Positions 336-8,902 of a stretch of DNA of 18,084 nucleotides are shown here, one piece after another. The position numbers and the translations under genes are program-made. Each line of letters starts with the position of its first letter. Positions within the stretch are counted from its first letter, which is position 1. The stretch spans positions 1 through 18,084 of the forward strand of contig JBHIFL010000081.1 in the NCBI GenBank assembly GCA_046761065.1, in the 5' to 3' direction. Source of the stretch: Candidatus Heimdallarchaeota archaeon (GTDB lineage: Archaea; Asgardarchaeota; Wukongarchaeia; Wukongarchaeales; JBHIFL01). Under the pieces are notes generated by a model, which was given only the letters and a program-made list of their open reading frames with translations, was not told the DNA's origin and made no database searches.

Positions 336-1100
336 CTAACGCAAAAGTCCATTAACATCAATTTCTCTGAGGGTTCGCAATTCCTCCTCTAAAGGTGGTT
401 GGGTTTCTGGAACATGATCTGGAACAACAAGGTTAAATCCTGTTTTTTCTTGGATTTCCTCAATCGTTTTACCAGGATGGACAGATTTCAAGCGCATTCT
501 CAACGTTTGTGGATCGAAATCAAGGGTGGCAATGTCGGTTACAACCAAGCTTGGCCCCCCTCCAGGAAAATTGGCTTTCTCCCACTCTTCTCGTCCGCGG
601 AGAAAGCCAATTCCTGAGCGAAAGTCAAGGGTTTCCACAAAGAGACGAGGCGAATGGGACGTTGTATAAATATAAAATCGCTTTGCCCGGGGGAGGAAGA
701 CAAGACCAATGGTACCGGGTCCTCTAAACTTGGGACGCTTCCAATCCCCAACACCTACGAGGTTGAGGTTACCATACGGATCACATTGGATGCCCCCAGC
801 AAAAAAGAAATCAATACGTCGGTTTTCTATGGCAGAAACATCTTCCAACCGTAAGTACGCATCAGCTCTGTGACTGGCTCGATAACTTGAACTACTTGCT
901 ATGAGCGAACCCCGAGGATTAACACAACCACTTCCGCCTGAGATCCAATTCATATTCGGGGCATGCATCTTTTGAGCCAACTGGCAGGCGGCCATGGGAA
1001 TCGCTGCTGACGCCCCGAGGATGCCCAACTCTCCGTCTTGGATGTCTCGCGCAAAAACAACTGCGATTAGTTCCTGAATTGAATAATCTTCTTTAGCCAT
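336..1100 (-). CDS. Family I CoA-transferase-like beta subunit (GctB/IpdB-like); canonical catalytic Glu apparently absent
   Basis: 254 aa. N-terminus DYSIQELIAVVFARDIQDGE, then HAPN, FFFAGGIQCDPYGNLN, HSPRLFVETLDF, GGGPSLVVTDIA, LKSVHPG..QEKTGF and ETQPP..EELRTLREID, all typical of GctB/CatJ/IpdB. SD GGGGTGA upstream; 4 nt gap from the alpha subunit. Confidence 0.9.
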   Translation of the reverse strand: MAKEDYSIQELIAVVFARDIQDGELGILGASAAIPMAACQLAQKMHAPNMNWISGGSGCVNPRGSLIASSSSYRASHRADAYLRLEDVSAIENRRIDFFFAGGIQCDPYGNLNLVGVGDWKRPKFRGPGTIGLVFLPRAKRFYIYTTSHSPRLFVETLDFRSGIGFLRGREEWEKANFPGGGPSLVVTDIATLDFDPQTLRMRLKSVHPGKTIEEIQEKTGFNLVVPDHVPETQPPLEEELRTLREIDVNGLLR

Positions 1101-1104
1101 CTCA

Positions 1105-1998
1105 TCACCCCTTATACTTGAGAGTATTGAGGTGGTTTAAGCCTCCCACTTCGGTAAGATACTCATAGTGATCTTTAGGGTTGTAGACGTACTTTTCAAG
1201 ATAGGTTGTAAAGGTTTCTGCTTTCCTTGCAGCTAAGGCGTACTTCTTAAAATGCTCAACATCATAATCATAAAGAAATGAAGAGGAGCATGGATGGGCG
1301 GCATAAGGGAGCTTCACAACATGACTCACTAAAAACCCAGGAATCACCATCTGCATGGCATCAGTTTCGTCCTTCTCTTCAATTAACTCGTCACACGTTA
1401 AGATCACTCGCTTGCTTGCCAGTGCCATCACATCATCGACACAGATCGGACCTAGAGGCTGTCCATTCCCATTTGCATCAGCATGTTGGACGTGAAGTAT
1501 GGCAACATCCGGTTTCAGTGGAGGGACTGTGAATACATCAGGCCCCCCATATGGATCTTTTATACGCCGATATCCTTGAGGATTGGCTTTTGGGAGGTCG
1601 GTGTATTCATAACCATATGGTAACGGGATAAATGCGAGATTATTAGCTCCTGCTCGGAGTCCAAAACTTGTGTAGAGTTCACAACATTCCACAATTTCGA
1701 CCTGCCCGTTTTCCACTGCTCGACGATAATTGGGAGCGAGACCAAAAATTTCTAGACTAACGAAAGGGCAGGTAATAGAACGTACAATGCCTGGAACTCC
1801 GCATAACATATCAATTTGTATGCCTAGGGAGATTGAGCCAATCACTGCAAGATCACGTTTTTTTTGGCGGATCAACTCACGAATGGCAACACATGAAGAG
1901 TTGTGCATATGAATACCACCAATCGCGATCGTTGAGCCATTTGGAATGCTATGCACTGCTTCTTCGATAGAACTGAGTTTCGATGACCTTGAAGGCAT
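1105..1998 (-). CDS. Family I CoA-transferase-like alpha subunit (GctA/IpdA-like)
   Basis: 297 aa. Motifs KLSSIEEAV..IPNGSTIAIGG, GLAPNYRRAVENG, LRAGA..LAFIP, PLKPDVAILHVQHADANGN, ASKRVILTCDELI and PYAAHP. SD AAGGAGG upstream. Confidence 0.9.
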   Translation of the reverse strand: MPSRSSKLSSIEEAVHSIPNGSTIAIGGIHMHNSSCVAIRELIRQKKRDLAVIGSISLGIQIDMLCGVPGIVRSITCPFVSLEIFGLAPNYRRAVENGQVEIVECCELYTSFGLRAGANNLAFIPLPYGYEYTDLPKANPQGYRRIKDPYGGPDVFTVPPLKPDVAILHVQHADANGNGQPLGPICVDDVMALASKRVILTCDELIEEKDETDAMQMVIPGFLVSHVVKLPYAAHPCSSSFLYDYDVEHFKKYALAARKAETFTTYLEKYVYNPKDHYEYLTEVGGLNHLNTLKYKG

Positions 1999-2001
1999 CT
2001 A

Positions 2002-2409
2002 TTAGCCTCCTTTAAGGGGTTCAATTACATAGACAGGAGTCTCTCCAACATAATCGAAGGTGATTTTACAGCGCATGCCCAGCGAAATTTCGTCTCTGGT
2101 ACAATTCCGCATTCTGGCAAAAATAAGAGGTCCTTCTCCATCCAGCCGAATACAACCTACAAAATACGGAGGTTTAAATTCCTTTAGCGCAACACCTATC
2201 TCTGTATATGTCTCTAAAACCCCTTCTTTTTTCAATTCAATCCATTCTAAATCGGTATCATAGCACTTCGGACACATATGTCGCGGGGGCCAAAGGGTTT
2301 CATTACATCTCAGGCATCTTGTTGTTGTCAGTTTATGGTTTTTCAAATTCTCCCAAAACTGGTGAATCTTTGTTTTTTCCGTCCAAAGATAGAAAGGGAA
2401 TTTTTCCAT
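2002..2409 (-). CDS. DUF35-family Zn-ribbon/OB-fold protein (acyl-CoA-binding thiolase partner)
   Basis: 135 aa. FWENL..HKL, CLRC..LWPPR.MCPKC zinc ribbon, EGVLETYT, PPYFVGCIRL and ISLGMRC; lies directly downstream of the thiolase. Confidence 0.92.
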   Translation of the reverse strand: MEKFPFYLWTEKTKIHQFWENLKNHKLTTTRCLRCNETLWPPRHMCPKCYDTDLEWIELKKEGVLETYTEIGVALKEFKPPYFVGCIRLDGEGPLIFARMRNCTRDEISLGMRCKITFDYVGETPVYVIEPLKGG

Positions 2410-2429
2410 AATCGACCCACTCCAAATAT

Positions 2430-3593
2430 CTAAACAGAATAGATGTGCACCACATGGTGTGTTGCAAAGCCCGAGAGGTTTTGGGTCAACCCAACCTCCG
2501 CTCCTTCCACCTGTCGCTTGTCGGCTTCCCCACGAAGTTGCTTGACAACATCTACTGCTTGAGTAACTCCCGTGGCGCCGATCGGATGGCCTTTCGATAT
2601 TAGGCCACCGCTGGTGTTGAGTGGAATTGTTCCCCCCAAGTCGGTCTGACCTTCTTCAATCATCTTTCCCCCTTCTCCTTTTTTACAGAATCCGAGTTCT
2701 TCCGTCTCAATGATTTCAGAAATAGAAAAACAATCATGGACTTCAGCCACATCAATATCGTGTGGAGTTTTACTTGCCATTTTATAAGCAGTTTCCGCGG
2801 CTTTCCGAAGTGCATCCCACTCTATCAAATTATGCATATTTGAGGAGATCATAGCTGGTTCAAGAGATTGACCCGAGCCTAAAATCCATACGGGTGTGTC
2901 AGAATACTTTTTTGCAAGATCAGCACGCGTAAGGATAACAGCTGCTGCACCATCACTAATCCCTGAACAGTCTAATAATCCAAGTGGATACGCAATCATT
3001 CGAGCATTTAAGACATCTTCAAGGGTGACTGGGTTTCGATAATGCGCATATTCATTAAGTGATCCAAATTTCTTGCTCTTAACGCCCACCAACGCCATTT
3101 GTTCTCGGGTCGTGCCGTATTTTTTCATGTGGAGTTGCGCCATTAAAGCGAACCCAGCCGGAGCGGTCATGCCTTGACTTGATTCCCATGTTACATCCGG
3201 TACAATACATAAATTGCGAAATGCAATCCCAGGCATTTCATTCATCTTTTCTGCACCGACACAAAGAACAGTGTCAACCATTCCTGCCTTGATGGCAATC
3301 ATAGCATGTCGAATCGCCGTGCCTCCACTGCTACAGGCCATTTCAATCCGTGAAACGAGCTTCGGATAAAGTCCAAGGTACTCTGTGGCCAAATTTGCGA
3401 CATGCGCCTGATCAACAAGCGGCTCCGGTTGGGCAGAGGCTACATATAGTCCTTCAATGTCGTGCGGTGCAAGTTCCCCAGAATCCAAGAAAGCATTTCT
3501 CACCGCATCACCCAACAATTCTCGATAGGAGACATCCTCCCTTTTACCGAATTTAGTCAAGCCTATGGCAACGATGGCAACGTCTGAAGGCAT
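2430..3593 (-). CDS. Acetyl-CoA C-acyltransferase (archaeal/SCP2-type thiolase)
   Basis: 387 aa. VAIVAIGLTKFG, active-site MACSSG, VGAEKM, DCSGISDGAAA, AEVHDCF, NTSGGLISKGHPIGATG and QNLSG (no second Cys, as in SCP2-type thiolases). SD AGGTGA. Confidence 0.95.
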   Translation of the reverse strand: MPSDVAIVAIGLTKFGKREDVSYRELLGDAVRNAFLDSGELAPHDIEGLYVASAQPEPLVDQAHVANLATEYLGLYPKLVSRIEMACSSGGTAIRHAMIAIKAGMVDTVLCVGAEKMNEMPGIAFRNLCIVPDVTWESSQGMTAPAGFALMAQLHMKKYGTTREQMALVGVKSKKFGSLNEYAHYRNPVTLEDVLNARMIAYPLGLLDCSGISDGAAAVILTRADLAKKYSDTPVWILGSGQSLEPAMISSNMHNLIEWDALRKAAETAYKMASKTPHDIDVAEVHDCFSISEIIETEELGFCKKGEGGKMIEEGQTDLGGTIPLNTSGGLISKGHPIGATGVTQAVDVVKQLRGEADKRQVEGAEVGLTQNLSGFATHHVVHIYSV

Positions 3594-3620
3594 TTCATCA
3601 CCTAAACCAACTGATGAAAT
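3592..3620. promoter_or_regulatory. 9-bp perfect inverted repeat overlapping the thiolase SD and start codon
   Basis: ATTTCATCA (3592-3600) / TGATGAAAT (3612-3620) with an 11-nt spacer. Confidence 0.45.
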
Positions 3621-3667
3621 ATCACAAGGCCTTTAATCTGTTTTGTTTGATCATCTGTTAAAAACAC

Positions 3668-3733
3668 CTAGAAAGCTCTTTCAAATCTTCCTTGGTTTTA
3701 GTTATTGATAAAAGCTTTCTAGAGTTGATCAAC
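3668..3733. promoter_or_regulatory. Inverted repeat and palindrome upstream of the thiolase operon (candidate operator)
   Basis: CTAGAAAGCT (3668-3677) / AGCTTTCTAG (3713-3722), followed by the palindrome GTTGATCAAC (3724-3733). Confidence 0.4.
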
Positions 3734-4025
3734 AAGATCACTATGGATTTTTCTTCTAGGATTGATAATAAATTTATATAGATTCCTAGATAAAAGAGTA
3801 ATCAAGTATCCACAACGTAAACGGATCGATATTCTTCTTTTCTTCTATTAAAAGGGTAATCTGAAGATCCTCAAGATACAGGATTTGCACATCTTTTATT
3901 TTCTTTAAAAGGTCTTTTTTCTTAAAAAACTCGCTTACTGCAATTTATAACAGCTCATTTGGTCCCCAAAGGACTTTGGCGAGAGTTTCTGTATAAATAT
4001 TTGAAAAAATAAGAAAGAAAGATGA

Positions 4026-4982: not shown

Positions 4983-6959
4983 TTATATCCCTTGACGGAG
5001 GTCTGAAAGTATTTTTTCGAAGTAATCCAGCGATTCTGGATTAATTAATGCATCTCTATTGGTGATAGGCTTGCCATGAATTAAGTTAGTGACAGCAATT
5101 TCTACCTTTTTCATACTAAATGTGTAAGGAATATCCGGTGTTTCGAGAATTAATGCGGGTACATGTCTAGGAGATGCCTGTTCGCGTAGAATTCTTCTTA
5201 TCTTATTTTTTAATTCCTCTGTTAAATTATATTTCGGTACAAGTTTGACGAAGAGAATTATCCGTTGATCTCCCTTCCAATTCTGTCCAATTGCCAACGA
5301 ATCTGCAATTTCAGGTAAGGATTCTACGACTTCATAGATTTCGGCTGTACCGATACGTACGCCAGAAGGCTTTAAAACGGCATCGGAACGACCATAGAAT
5401 GTAATTCCACCTGTATCGCTATGAATGACGATGTAGTCACCATGCCGCCAGACATTTTTTCCTATAGGCTGATAGAAATTAAAATACGCCTCTTTATACT
5501 TCTCATTATTTGGATCATTCCAGAAGTACAAAGGCATCGAAGGAGATGGAGCTTCGCAAACGAGTTCGGCTTTTTGATCAACTATGGGATTCCCTTGTTC
5601 ATCATACGCCTTCACCTTCATTCCTAAGGCTAAAGCTTGTAATTCGCCGGCATAAACAGGAAGGAAGGGGCTTCCAATAGCAAAACAACCGTTGATGTCA
5701 GTTCCTCCAGAAATTGAGTTGAAATGTAAATCCGCTTTAATATTTTTATAAACCCATTCAAACCCTTCTGCCGAAAGGGGCGAGGCCGTTTGCGAAATTT
5801 GACGTAACGAGGATAAATCGTACGTCTTGCCCGGTGTAGCACCTATACTGCTTAGATAATAGATATAACTTGCACTGCAGCCAAAGATTGTAATTTTTTT
5901 ATCTTGAACTAATCGGAACATGGTTCCCCAATCAGGGTACAGGGGATTGCCATCGTAGAGCACAATTGTAGTTCCTACCGCTAAAGAACTTATTAGCCAA
6001 TTCCACATCATCCAGCTCGGCGCGGTTATATATGTAATTCTGTCATCTCGTTTTAAATCGGTATGGAGGATCAGTTCCTTTAAGTGGTTTAGAAGGACAC
6101 CTCCGGCACCTTGGACCATGCACTTGGGCTTCCCAGTTGTTCCGCTTGAAAACATAATATAGGCAGGATGATCGAATGGCAATTGTTCAAATTGAAGTGA
6201 TGGCTGCTTTTCTGCTGACAAAAATTCCTCATAATGAATAGCATTAGGAATATTGCTGATATTTGCTTTTTCTGATGCATATGACACTACAATTACTTTT
6301 TCCAACGAGGATATGCCTTTCACAACTTGTTTGGTATTTGGTAATGTGTGAAACGTCTTGTCTTTATAGAAGTAGCCATCCGCTGTAAAAAGAACTTTCG
6401 GTTCAATTTGACCAAAACGATCTAGTACAGCTGATGGTCCAAGCTCAGCACCACAAGAAGCCCAAGTGGCACCAATGCTAGTAGCCGCAAGCATCGCAAT
6501 AACCGTCTCTATGAGATTGGGCATGTACGCGACTACTCGATCTCCAGGATCTACCCCATTCTCACGCAGTGATTTGGAAAGCCAAGCCACTTGATTGTAT
6601 AACTCTGTATAGGTCATCTTTGTGGCCTTTTTTGTTTCTCCTTGAAAAATAAACGCGATGTAGTCATCTCTATATCTTAAGAGATTCTCAGCGAAATTCA
6701 ATCTAGCGCCAGGAAACCATTTTGCGCCAGGAAACCGGTTTAAGTCGTCTACTACCTTATCATAATTATGGGAAGCTTTGATACCAACAAAGTACCATAA
6801 AGCCGCCCAAAAATCCGGTATTTTTTCAATTGACCACTGATATAGTTGTGAATAAGAGTTAATTTGCAGATCATATTTTTTATTGACGAAATTGATAAAG
6901 CGATTCATATTGGTTTGTTTTATTAATTCTTGAGAAGGCTTCCAGAGCAATTTGCCCAT
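4983..6959 (-). CDS. aacS: Acetoacetate--CoA ligase (acetoacetyl-CoA synthetase)
   Basis: 658 aa. LLWKPS, WFPGARLNFAENLL, FSSGTTGKPKC P-loop, WMMWNWL, SISGGTDI, SMPLYFWNDP, VWRHGD, GRSDAVLKPSGVRIGTAEIY, SPRHVP and KKVE are diagnostic of the AACS subfamily of ANL enzymes. Confidence 0.95.
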   Translation of the reverse strand: MGKLLWKPSQELIKQTNMNRFINFVNKKYDLQINSYSQLYQWSIEKIPDFWAALWYFVGIKASHNYDKVVDDLNRFPGAKWFPGARLNFAENLLRYRDDYIAFIFQGETKKATKMTYTELYNQVAWLSKSLRENGVDPGDRVVAYMPNLIETVIAMLAATSIGATWASCGAELGPSAVLDRFGQIEPKVLFTADGYFYKDKTFHTLPNTKQVVKGISSLEKVIVVSYASEKANISNIPNAIHYEEFLSAEKQPSLQFEQLPFDHPAYIMFSSGTTGKPKCMVQGAGGVLLNHLKELILHTDLKRDDRITYITAPSWMMWNWLISSLAVGTTIVLYDGNPLYPDWGTMFRLVQDKKITIFGCSASYIYYLSSIGATPGKTYDLSSLRQISQTASPLSAEGFEWVYKNIKADLHFNSISGGTDINGCFAIGSPFLPVYAGELQALALGMKVKAYDEQGNPIVDQKAELVCEAPSPSMPLYFWNDPNNEKYKEAYFNFYQPIGKNVWRHGDYIVIHSDTGGITFYGRSDAVLKPSGVRIGTAEIYEVVESLPEIADSLAIGQNWKGDQRIILFVKLVPKYNLTEELKNKIRRILREQASPRHVPALILETPDIPYTFSMKKVEIAVTNLIHGKPITNRDALINPESLDYFEKILSDLRQGI

Positions 6960-7020
6960 TGATTTGCCCCCATTAAGGTTTTGATAACATCATATTTATT
7001 TTAAGATCTGATACATCCCC

Positions 7021-7200
7021 CTACACAGACGCATATCCATTGAGTTTCTGTAAATACGAACTAATATGTAAAGTTCTGATAATATGCAAATTGGCGTTAC
7101 CTATTTTTACATAGTAATACGTTGGATTAAAATTCAGCATCCAACTGTTATATTCAGTTTCACTCTCAGTAAAAAATTTAGTTAGTAAGCACCTTTTCAT
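7021..7200 (-). CDS. Possible small hypothetical protein (59 aa); doubtful
   Basis: ATG at 7200 preceded by AAGGAG about 14 nt upstream, co-oriented with aacS; no recognisable motif. Confidence 0.2.
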   Translation of the reverse strand: MKRCLLTKFFTESETEYNSWMLNFNPTYYYVKIGNANLHIIRTLHISSYLQKLNGYASV

Positions 7201-7386
7201 TGTATGATTTTTCTCTCCTTTTATAAGCCTATCATGTTTTATCAAAAACACCTTTTCTTATGATATATTCAAAAATCTTACTGATAATTATCCTTAGTGC
7301 ATTTTTAAAAGCTTTCCTACCGTTTTCTCACATTATAAAGAAGATGTAGGAAAAAGATCCGAATAAATTCTCTAAATAACCAAATT

Positions 7387-7399
7387 AGAAACTTTTTTA
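7387..7399 (+). promoter_or_regulatory. Putative BRE/TATA promoter of the 7462 gene
   Basis: AGAAAC-TTTTTTA, i.e. a purine-rich BRE followed by a T-rich TATA element, about 63 nt upstream of the start. Confidence 0.45.
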
Positions 7400-7461
7400 T
7401 TGGATGAGAAGCCATCTCTCTTTTGTAGCCGCATAATTGCCATTAGATAGGGGGTACCCCA

Positions 7462-7767
7462 TTGCTTTGTTTTGAGTTTCGTAATCGTGAATTTGTCGAA
7501 GTAAGTGGAACACCTTCAAGCGACATCTATCTGTTAGTAAACCGTGAAAGCGAATCTCTTGAATTACACTTTAGTACAGGAGCAAATCTTATTGAATGTC
7601 GTACTGCTGAACGCCAAGCACGTTCTATCGCAGCCTCGGGAGTTCAACTTGTCACTGGAGAAAGAATTGGTAGAGGGTTCAATCTCACAGTTAATTCAGA
7701 TGGAACTGGTCTTCCTGAACGCTTGAAAAAACCCGTTCCAGAGGCCTATTTCCAGAAAATGTATTGA
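7462..7767 (+). CDS. Small protein with a putative single gelsolin-like domain
   Basis: 101 aa, TTG start with SD GGGGGT. The pattern LCFEF-FVEV-SSDIYLLVN-LELHFSTGANLIECRTAERQARSIA-GRGFNLTV-DGTGLPERL parallels the gelsolin repeat (SxDxFILD..IYVWxGxxSsxxERxxAxxxAxxI..GxxxVxV.xGxEP). It has its own promoter and a T-tract terminator. Confidence 0.7.
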   Translation: MLCFEFRNREFVEVSGTPSSDIYLLVNRESESLELHFSTGANLIECRTAERQARSIAASGVQLVTGERIGRGFNLTVNSDGTGLPERLKKPVPEAYFQKMY

Positions 7768-7815
7768 CATATCGAACCCCTAAGTGCTATTGTCTTTGGG
7801 CGGTCATTCACTCAC

Positions 7816-7827
7816 TTTTTTTTCTTT
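7816..7827 (+). terminator. Putative archaeal oligo-T terminator
   Basis: TTTTTTTTCTTT about 50 nt after the 7462-7767 stop, between convergent genes. Confidence 0.45.
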
Positions 7828-7864
7828 GTCCTGCCTAGATCTATAAGGAGTTTTCTTCTTTGAG

Positions 7865-8902
7865 TTACTCTAAGTGTGAATAAAATTCTAATGGCCTAAG
7901 TTCTTTTAATTTAGTGGTTTTCTGAGTAATATATTTCCTGATATCAACACAAAGGTGGCATTTGGAAATATATCCTTTGCTGCGCTCTTCATATTCAAAT
8001 TCTTTGATGCCAATGTGGTAAAGGGCTTCTATGTCGGTTGTTAAAGCGTTGAGGATTGGATAGTCCTCTAAATTGATCTGGTTGATTGAATTGAGGTTCG
8101 TTGCGTTACCGAGAGAGATACCTGCACAGTAGCCGGGGATGTAATTCCCGTAGTTGTCGATATGGATATGCCATGGTCTTTTCAGTTCGTCTATGCAGGA
8201 TTCGCCGAATAATGTTTTTGGGGGATACTTTCGATATAAATGCCCTAGTTTGTAAGGCACCCGAGCCATTGGGAAAATAGAAGGGTAGCTAAGGCCATAT
8301 TGGAGTCCAAGAGGGTTTTTCTTTTTCATTAAGGAGAGATAATCCCTGAAGGAGAGCGTTTGTTTGATATTAAGGATTCTGAGTTGAGTAAAAAAGAGAT
8401 TGTTATAAACCATCACATTTTCGCCAAAAATTTCTTTTCCTATTTTGATGGCTCGTTCGATTCTTTCAAAAGGGATTTGCTCCACTGTGAAGGGGTTGGC
8501 ACTGAGAAGAATCCCTTTTAACCCCTTAGCTTTTAATTGCTTAAATCGATCTTTTACTTGGTCATCCCTCGTACACCAATAGCAGTTTGTTTCAGTAAAA
8601 GTTGAGGGGATTTGAAGTGATTGGGCAATTTCTGTGAGATTAAGAAGCAAATTGAAGTTTAGAAAGGGTTCTCCACCAGTGAAATGAACTCCATAATTCA
8701 CCCCCACTTTTTCTCCCCCCCAAGGACTTCCTTCGATGCTTCTAGCTAGTTGGGTTAAAATTTGTTCTGCATCTGACTCAGCGAGCCAGTCAGCATTCCA
8801 ATGGGGGGAACAGGCATACATACAGTGCTTACATTCATTAGTGCATTTGTAAGAGAGGAGTATCCCCGCTGAGAATGGTTTTGGTACGGTTAACATTTTC
8901 AT
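7865..8902 (-). CDS. Radical SAM protein of unknown function
   Basis: 345 aa. CTNECKHC (CxxxCxxC), FTGGEPF, ETNCYWC; extra C-terminal Cys residues (ESC, PGYCAG, KCHLC) suggest an auxiliary cluster. SD AAGGAGG. Confidence 0.9.
   Translation of the reverse strand: MKMLTVPKPFSAGILLSYKCTNECKHCMYACSPHWNADWLAESDAEQILTQLARSIEGSPWGGEKVGVNYGVHFTGGEPFLNFNLLLNLTEIAQSLQIPSTFTETNCYWCTRDDQVKDRFKQLKAKGLKGILLSANPFTVEQIPFERIERAIKIGKEIFGENVMVYNNLFFTQLRILNIKQTLSFRDYLSLMKKKNPLGLQYGLSYPSIFPMARVPYKLGHLYRKYPPKTLFGESCIDELKRPWHIHIDNYGNYIPGYCAGISLGNATNLNSINQINLEDYPILNALTTDIEALYHIGIKEFEYEERSKGYISKCHLCVDIRKYITQKTTKLKELRPLEFYSHLE

Follow-up and report, generated by a model that had tools for sequence, protein, structure and literature searches.

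Two adjoining genes on contig JBHIFL010000081.1 of an Asgard archaeon (Candidatus Heimdallarchaeota archaeon, assembly GCA_046761065.1) encode the alpha and beta subunits of a protein with the fold of family I CoA-transferases. We analysed a stretch of 18,084 nucleotides of this contig, called the window in the following, and positions refer to it unless another locus is named. In databases, such genes are listed as 'glutaconate CoA-transferase subunit A/B' or simply 'CoA-transferase'. In glutaconate CoA-transferase (GctAB), Glu54 of the beta subunit GctB forms the acyl-enzyme anhydride and the CoA thioester. An earlier note on this DNA, made from the sequence alone, had claimed that the beta subunit of the window lacks this residue and had suggested that the pair cleaves a C-C bond in the manner of IpdAB, the COCHEA-CoA ring-C hydrolase of steroid catabolism. 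This raises the question of whether the pair still transfers CoA and, if it does not, which reaction it catalyses.

Our data indicate that the pair is in all likelihood not a CoA-transferase but a repurposed fold in beta-oxidation-like catabolism. More tentatively, and at somewhat less than even confidence, the sequences point to an IpdAB-type hydratase/C-C-cleaving enzyme that would feed a 3-oxoacyl-CoA to a thiolase. The two genes are the last of an operon (336–3593) that starts with a thiolase gene, followed by a gene for a DUF35 protein, alpha and beta, with gaps of 20, 3 and 4 nt. DUF35 proteins are the usual partners of SCP-x-type thiolases.

Active-site residues of the two subunits

The translation of beta reads HAPNMNWISGGSG at residues 46–58 (window 927–965). 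Both phmmer and profile alignments set Gly55/Gly56 (window 933–938) or a gap against GctB Glu54, which is the E of IIVESG. The match to GctB (1POI_B) on which this comparison is based has an E-value of 1.4e-24 in phmmer and of 4e-43 with the profile. In the family profile alignment, the Glu54 column is also the position of Cys56 in AibB, the beta subunit of the decarboxylase AibAB. The catalytic Glu is absent from 119 of 126 beta homologues. An AlphaFold2 (AF2) model of beta (pLDDT 82) gave Foldseek TMq values of 0.86 to 1POI_B, 0.81 to AibB and 0.75 to IpdB. The missing Glu claimed in the earlier note is therefore borne out by sequence and profile alignments, and the motifs and coordinates quoted there agree exactly with the translations. 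IpdB likewise has a Gly (Gly57 in RHA1) where GctB has the catalytic Glu, and IpdAB showed no CoA transfer (PMC5380842).

It was also considered whether another Glu of beta, located in the motif IENR, might take the canonical position. This residue, Glu92, is Glu in 73 and Gln in 25 of the 119 homologues lacking the catalytic Glu. Since it is variable and aligns with an additional, non-nucleophilic Glu of GctB, it is not a relocated catalytic residue. The alignment of beta homologues contains no acidic residue in beta that is specific to the clade described below.

In alpha, FVSLE..GLAP occupies residues 79–89 and residues 103–114 read VECCELYTSFGL (window 1657–1692). The position of IpdA Glu105 was taken from the sole difference between the chains 6CO6_A (MDEGM) and 6COJ_A (MDAGM), the latter structure being titled 'IpdAB E105A COCHEA-CoA complex' in Foldseek. 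In the phmmer alignment, Glu107 of alpha (VECCELY, codon 1678–1680) aligns with this mutated residue with high posterior probability, so that the proposed likeness to IpdA holds at the level of the individual residue. GctA has Gln and AibA has Gly at this position. Similarly, Arg40 of alpha (codon 1879–1881) aligns with an Arg of IpdA, where Phe is found in GctA and Met in AibA. Among the polar residues of alpha, only Glu107 and Arg40 are both conserved to at least 90% within a clade of 33 alphas and different from canonical alphas. Arg40 is present in 46 of the 51 alphas having Glu107, compared to 2 of 37 canonical ones; in an alignment of 25 sequences it is invariant, and Glu107 is nearly so. 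In the AF2 model of alpha (pLDDT 91; TMq 0.89 to GctA, 0.86 to IpdA with a root-mean-square deviation of 2.1, and 0.78 to AibA), Glu107 begins the helix that follows strand 101–103. The structure study of IpdAB reportedly assigned IpdA Glu105 as the catalytic base and described proton exchange next to the hydration site.

The clade lacking the beta glutamate and its gene neighbourhoods

In a tree of 141 alpha sequences, the alpha of the window falls into a clade of 33 with 97% support, and 32 of these 33 carry Glu107. We also compared 70 alpha/beta pairs, drawn from loci of Asgard relatives, metagenome contigs and GTDB species genomes. Wherever beta retains the canonical Glu (12 pairs), position 107 of alpha is Asn or His; of the 58 pairs whose beta lacks it, 47 have Glu107 in alpha. 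The clade without the beta Glu occurs in Asgard archaea, Thermoplasmata, Dormibacterota, Actinomycetes, Bacillota and others, and cultured carriers include Heliophilum fasciatum DSM 11170 and Acididesulfobacillus acetoxydans. Beta is matched at E <= 1e-10 in 36 of 61 genomes of the Asgard phylum, the window's own included, a count that also contains canonical, Glu-bearing pairs. An archaeal host, as the earlier note had assumed, agrees with homologues of the pair with 88% identity that carry the name Candidatus Hodarchaeota, and the window DNA occurs in hydrothermal vent metagenomes.

A relative with 82% identity (L046) keeps the order ligase, regulator(s), thiolase, DUF35, alpha and beta. At 79 loci of further relatives, the constant neighbour is a short-chain dehydrogenase/reductase (SDR), which 44 of them encode at a distance of at most 2.5 kb. 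Crotonase genes occur in 34 of these loci, acyl-CoA dehydrogenase genes in 29 and CoA ligase genes in 22, and 11 have a full four-subunit set resembling benzoyl-CoA reductase. Thiolase and DUF35 genes adjoin the pair in 9 loci, which come from several phyla. Because CoA ligases are present in such clusters, a transferase is unnecessary for activation. The order BcrC-BcrB-BcrA-BcrD-crotonase-alpha-beta-SDR recurs in Actinomycetes, Dormibacterota, Acidimicrobiia, a bin labelled Micrarchaeaceae and Asgard archaea, and a variant of it was found in Heliophilum. The best NCBIfam matches within this cluster are Thauera-type subunits for the reductase, BadH for the SDR, dearomat_had for an adjacent zinc-dependent alcohol dehydrogenase (ADH) and MenB/BadI/Oah for the crotonase, all of them below the curated cut-offs; a match to the benzoate-CoA ligase family lies above its cut-off. 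In Thermoplasmata and Methanomassiliicoccales, genes for DUF35, thiolase and SDR run divergently from alpha-beta and a Had-like ADH, with betas 45–52% identical to that of the window. These loci bridge the reductase-type clusters and the trimmed operon of the window. In literature searches, neither the reductase-crotonase-pair-SDR cluster nor Gct-like enzymes without the Glu in Asgard archaea were found to have been described before, which does not prove that no such description exists.

Two further associations were examined. Co-inheritance of the thiolase with the pair was rejected, as the thiolases beside such pairs do not form one clade in a thiolase tree. Their position in different clades indicates that the association arose repeatedly, at least three separate times. 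A general link of the pair to acetoacetate-CoA ligase was also rejected: the ligase accompanies it only in close Hodarchaeota relatives, and the one case among the 79 other loci is a canonical pair.

Which reaction the pair may catalyse

The likeness to IpdAB (Rhodococcus jostii RHA1 and Mycobacterium tuberculosis; 6CO6, 6CO9, 6COJ, 6CON) comprises two genes for an alpha/beta family I fold, Gly in place of the catalytic Glu in beta, the equivalents of Glu105 and Arg40 in alpha, and a thiolase as working partner. Around the relatives of the pair, the families of ligase, SDR, crotonase and acyl-CoA dehydrogenase are shared with the surroundings of IpdAB as well. Taken together, the IpdAB-like active-site signature, the co-transcription with thiolase and DUF35 and the SDR/reductase clusters of the relatives lead us to favour an IpdAB-type reaction.

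Chemistry, order of steps and substrate are inferred. Assuming that the pair works in this way, it would bind an acyl-CoA, as IpdAB does. Glu107 of alpha would act as general base, probably assisted by Arg40, and water would be added to an alpha,beta-unsaturated beta-oxo (or beta-hydroxy) acyl-CoA. The C-C bond would then be broken by a retro-aldol/retro-Claisen-type step, and the product would be a linear 3-oxoacyl-CoA that the co-transcribed thiolase/DUF35 could split with CoA. In the relatives, the SDR would make the beta-oxo group before the pair acts, and their clusters would yield an intermediate of the 6-oxocyclohexene-carbonyl-CoA type.

The resemblance to IpdAB has clear limits. Identity in the structural alignment of alpha is only 23–24%, the window reads ECCEL where IpdA has EMDEG, and Asp106 is missing. 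A HIP/KstR2-type context (ipdC, ipdF, echA20, fadA6, fadD3, fadE) is not present in the window operon, which offers only thiolase and DUF35 and thus no equivalents of ipdC, ipdF and echA20; the relatives carry SDR, crotonase, acyl-CoA dehydrogenase and ligase with benzoyl-CoA-reductase-like genes instead of the HIP set. The organism is an Asgard archaeon, anaerobic and known from the metagenome of a hydrothermal vent, so that steroid catabolism is unlikely. In favour of the likeness, a figure legend of PMC6678751 lists a Sterolibacterium cluster with a similar order: IpdA-like, IpdB-like, BbsA-like (DUF35) subunit, SCP-x-type thiolase and IpdC-like.

Overall, GctAB of Acidaminococcus fermentans (1POI) is the best match in sequence, profile and fold, with 30% identity in alpha and 28% in beta. 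The subunits are of equal size, including a C-terminal helical extension of alpha, and the differences concern the residues described above. Profiles of the clade score 212 bits with Gct, 172 with Ipd and 166 with Aib for alpha, and 151, 105 and 116 bits, respectively, for beta. These scores argue against an IpdAB orthologue. On the sequence evidence, the pair forms a branch of its own within the Gct group and has the residue pattern of IpdAB. For the alpha of a beta-pattern locus from Binatia/delta-proteobacteria (tested for L096), IpdA is the best PDB match, which hints that IpdAB and the clade may have inherited the Glu swap from a common ancestor.

Several observations speak against an IpdAB-type function. 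GctAB ranks above IpdAB for both subunits, with single sequences and profiles alike, and the catalytic design common with IpdAB could therefore be convergent or merely apparent. In 11 of the 58 pairs without the beta Glu, position 107 is occupied by other residues (5 Ser, 2 Ala, 2 Cys, 1 Gly, 1 Pro). The one exception within the clade of 33, the nearest other Hodarchaeales pair (L047), reads VECEAAF and has its Glu one residue earlier, at 106. Covariation between the beta Glu and alpha 107 was rejected as independent statistical evidence, because the state of the beta Glu changes only once on the alpha tree and thus provides one independent contrast; the single split indicates a deep, coherent clade that mostly keeps the alpha Glu. 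From the operon of the window itself, SDR, crotonase and IpdC-like reductase genes are missing, as is a reductase cluster. In the window's own genome, the benzoyl-CoA-reductase-like genes are only 24–30% identical to those of the linked clusters and lie on other contigs. Finally, the crotonase of the related clusters, being of the BadI/MenB/Oah type, could itself open the ring. Of the earlier proposal, all predictions at the level of sequence hold, and its interpretation is supported in part: the residue pattern, the thiolase/DUF35 operon and the beta-oxidation-type neighbourhoods of relatives agree with it, but the closer match to GctAB, the missing HIP set and other possible chemistries of Glu-lacking folds limit it.

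Among these other chemistries, decarboxylation of the AibAB type is the foremost, though unlikely in itself. A glutaconyl-type (vinylogous beta-carboxy) acyl-CoA would lose CO2 and give an enoyl-CoA for beta-oxidation. AibA/AibB, the 3-methylglutaconyl-CoA decarboxylase of Myxococcus xanthus (5MZW), also belongs to the Gct family, lacks the beta Glu and is a proven case of a non-transferase reaction on a CoA ester. It scores against the window clade similarly to IpdAB, and decarboxylation of glutaconyl-CoA is required in benzoyl-CoA-type pathways. However, AibB has Cys56 where the window has Gly, AibA has neither the Glu107 nor the Arg40 of the window and is shorter (265 aa), and a separate class with Cys at alpha 107 is more similar to AibAB. 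The HMG-CoA synthase, LiuC and AibC of the AibAB context are absent at the window operon, whose thiolase could not directly use an enoyl-CoA.

Slightly less probable than decarboxylation is that the pair is only a hydratase or isomerase without C-C cleavage, and that in the related clusters the BadI/Oah-like crotonase opens the ring. The only crotonase of the reductase-linked clusters is a C-C hydrolase by type (BadI/MenB/Oah), and a plain hydratase is not obvious in them. In the window, on the other hand, the operon has a thiolase that needs a 3-oxoacyl-CoA and neither crotonase nor SDR, and a bare hydration product would first need a dehydrogenase.

Intramolecular CoA transfer appears a shade more doubtful again. 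It needs no enzyme nucleophile: the thioester of a dicarboxylyl-CoA would be attacked by the free carboxylate of the same molecule, which brings CoA to the other end. In the anaerobic breakdown of naphthalene, such a reaction is catalysed by ThnP, a family I enzyme of the Cat1 subgroup without the conserved Glu (PMC11659651). Dicarboxylic acyl-CoAs are bound by Gct-type folds, and both ring opening and thiolysis give dicarboxylyl-CoAs in which CoA possibly needs to be re-positioned. Still, ThnP is a single chain of another subgroup, and its reaction would leave unexplained why the alpha Glu/Arg pair common with IpdA is so strictly kept.

Least probable is that the pair still transfers CoA between molecules, with acetoacetate or another 3-oxoacid as a conceivable acceptor and alpha Glu107 or another residue as nucleophile. 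In favour of this, transferase and thiolase together make up the classic ato arrangement, a gene for acetoacetate-CoA ligase is found 3 kb upstream at a place kept in the relative with 82% identity, and a canonical Asgard pair also adjoins such a ligase and thiolases. Against it, the essential beta Glu is absent throughout the clade, IpdAB with the same residue pattern did not transfer CoA, activation is already supplied by the ligases of the clusters, and the ligase linkage outside the close relatives is limited to the single locus mentioned above.

The archaeal thiolase/DUF35 complex normally channels acetoacetyl-CoA into 3-hydroxy-3-methylglutaryl-CoA (HMG-CoA) synthase. The window operon resembles the genes of this complex in that both partner families are adjacent and co-transcribed, and differs in having the alpha/beta pair, not HMG-CoA synthase, as third partner. 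A single CoA_trans pair is present in the genome bin, which comprises 4.4 Mb at 91% completeness and 8% contamination. According to searches of this genome, the operon thiolase is one of six such thiolases and HMG-CoA synthase is not encoded together with it and its DUF35 protein. The sole HMG_CoA_synt match, at C1:96331, adjoins another thiolase at C1:97356, which argues that the operon is not a mevalonate module. Physical linkage of the pair to a benzoyl-CoA-reductase-like cluster was not found in this genome, whose HGD-D genes lie on contigs C13, C23, C35 and C201.

A wider scenario, improbable as a whole to about the same degree as intramolecular transfer, would combine four proposals. The thiolase/DUF35 scaffold of Hodarchaeota might have taken the Glu-lacking pair as third partner in place of channelling to HMG-CoA synthase. 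The resulting channelling complex might couple thiolysis or condensation to a C-C hydro-lyase with CoA-transferase fold. Together with the upstream acetoacetate-CoA ligase, this might form an undescribed acetoacetyl-CoA/3-oxoacid route in the archaeal lineage nearest to eukaryotes, and the members of the clade might, so far unnoticed, open the ring in a widespread form of the benzoyl-CoA pathway.

Folds of CoA-transferases that lack the Glu and have acquired new chemistry are already known from IpdAB, AibAB and ThnP. New are the Glu-lacking clade itself, with its Asgard members and a natural fusion, the conserved IpdA-like Glu/Arg signature despite a Gct-like overall sequence, and the fixed place in benzoyl-CoA-reductase-like and thiolase/DUF35 neighbourhoods. 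The names glutaconate CoA-transferase and CoA-transferase are very probably wrong for the pair of the window and for the majority of its relatives, those without the Glu. If the IpdAB-like assignment is true, the move of the catalytic Glu from beta to alpha, by which a transferase becomes a C-C-cleaving hydratase, is not peculiar to steroid degraders but a hallmark of a large, mostly anaerobic clade. Metabolic reconstructions of Asgard archaea would then change, and an unstudied step in the anaerobic breakdown of alicyclic or aromatic acids would be indicated. In benzoyl-CoA-reductase-like clusters with a member of the clade, the lower pathway is at present annotated by analogy to Thauera or Rhodopseudomonas.

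Gene map of the window and observations at other loci

The genes of the operon and its surroundings are listed in Table 1. The thiolase carries its nucleophilic Cys in EMACSSGG, and the DUF35 protein combines an OB fold with a zinc ribbon (CxxC...CxxC). TATA-like runs are present in the intergenic region upstream of the thiolase, with GGTGAT directly before the thiolase ATG, and this region is presumed to be the promoter region of the operon. The acetoacetate-CoA ligase gene is co-directional with the operon.

Table 1. Features of the window in and around the operon of the alpha/beta pair
Feature	Position	Strand	Support or remark
Beta, family I CoA-transferase fold, 254 aa	336..1100	minus	Pfam CoA_trans PF01144
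Alpha, CoA-transferase fold, 297 aa	1105..1998	minus	Pfam CoA_trans PF01144
DUF35 protein, 135 aa	2002..2409	minus	Pfam zf-ChsH2 + OB_ChsH2_C; weak NCBIfam BbsA match
Thiolase, archaeal/SCP-x-type, 387 aa	2430..3593	minus	NCBIfam PRK06064, 444.8 bits, above cut-off
Intergenic region upstream of operon, AT-rich, 432 bp	3594..4025	minus	direct sequence reading
Small winged-helix regulator, DUF7342/TrmB-like, 158 aa	4026..4502	minus	weak Pfam matches
Acetoacetate-CoA ligase family gene, 658 aa	4983..6959	minus	TIGR01217, 829.8 bits, above cut-off
Two adjoining radical SAM genes, 345 and 288 aa	7865–9805	minus	apparently unrelated to the pair

A public contig of 41.5 kb (L001) shows that contig C83 of the genome continues the window past base 1. 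The genes of C83 encode a 260-aa protein without assignment, an HD protein, a Big-domain protein, a 386-aa crotonase of the ECH_2 type, an amidohydrolase_2 protein, a ferredoxin and an aldehyde:ferredoxin oxidoreductase.

In another Asgard genome (L035:3593–7777), a canonical pair (beta IIFEAGG, alpha Asn107) divergently adjoins an acetoacetate-CoA ligase gene whose product is 69% identical to that of the window, with several thiolase/DUF35 genes close by. This arrangement indicates that the ligase associates also with true transferases. The Hodarchaeales pair with the shifted Glu (L047:3025–4707) has an alpha with 47% identity and a beta of the GGSG type without a precomputed Pfam match. It adjoins genes for a xylose-isomerase-like TIM barrel and a radical SAM protein, and thiolase and DUF35 are absent there.

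Alpha and beta are fused into one protein of 526 aa at L041:8362–9942, L021:6137–7717 and L022:3616–5196; the fusion lacks the beta Glu and keeps the alpha Glu. In two Asgard genomes of another family, it lies in the order ADH, BcrC, BcrB, BcrA, BcrD, crotonase, fusion, SDR. At the delta-proteobacterial/Binatia loci L083, L085, L090, L096 and L108 (about 6250–8800), alpha and beta are separated by a gap of about 700 bp, which probably holds an extra open reading frame, and a divergent crotonase-thiolase-DUF35 set is present.

Two bacterial loci (L004 and L045, about 700–20500) combine an HGD-D pair, a lone 280-aa CoA_trans protein, an acyl-CoA dehydrogenase, a 3HCDH protein and an SDR with the alpha/beta pair. 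Further genes at these loci specify a PaaK-like ligase, a thiolase, a metallo-beta-lactamase and as many as four paralogues of UbiD; a crotonase gene is not visible. This cluster looks like a pathway for aromatic di-acids.

A third Gct-like class is defined by Cys at alpha 107 (EH[AS]CYT) and accounts for 49 of the 141 alphas. The one pair of this class that was read (L048:8001–9606) has an AibB-like beta lacking the Glu and adjoins a gene of the Ldh_2 family. A metagenome-assembled genome of Solirubrobacteraceae (L098) carries three alpha-beta pairs in tandem, each with Glu107 in alpha and with differing beta loops that lack the Glu.

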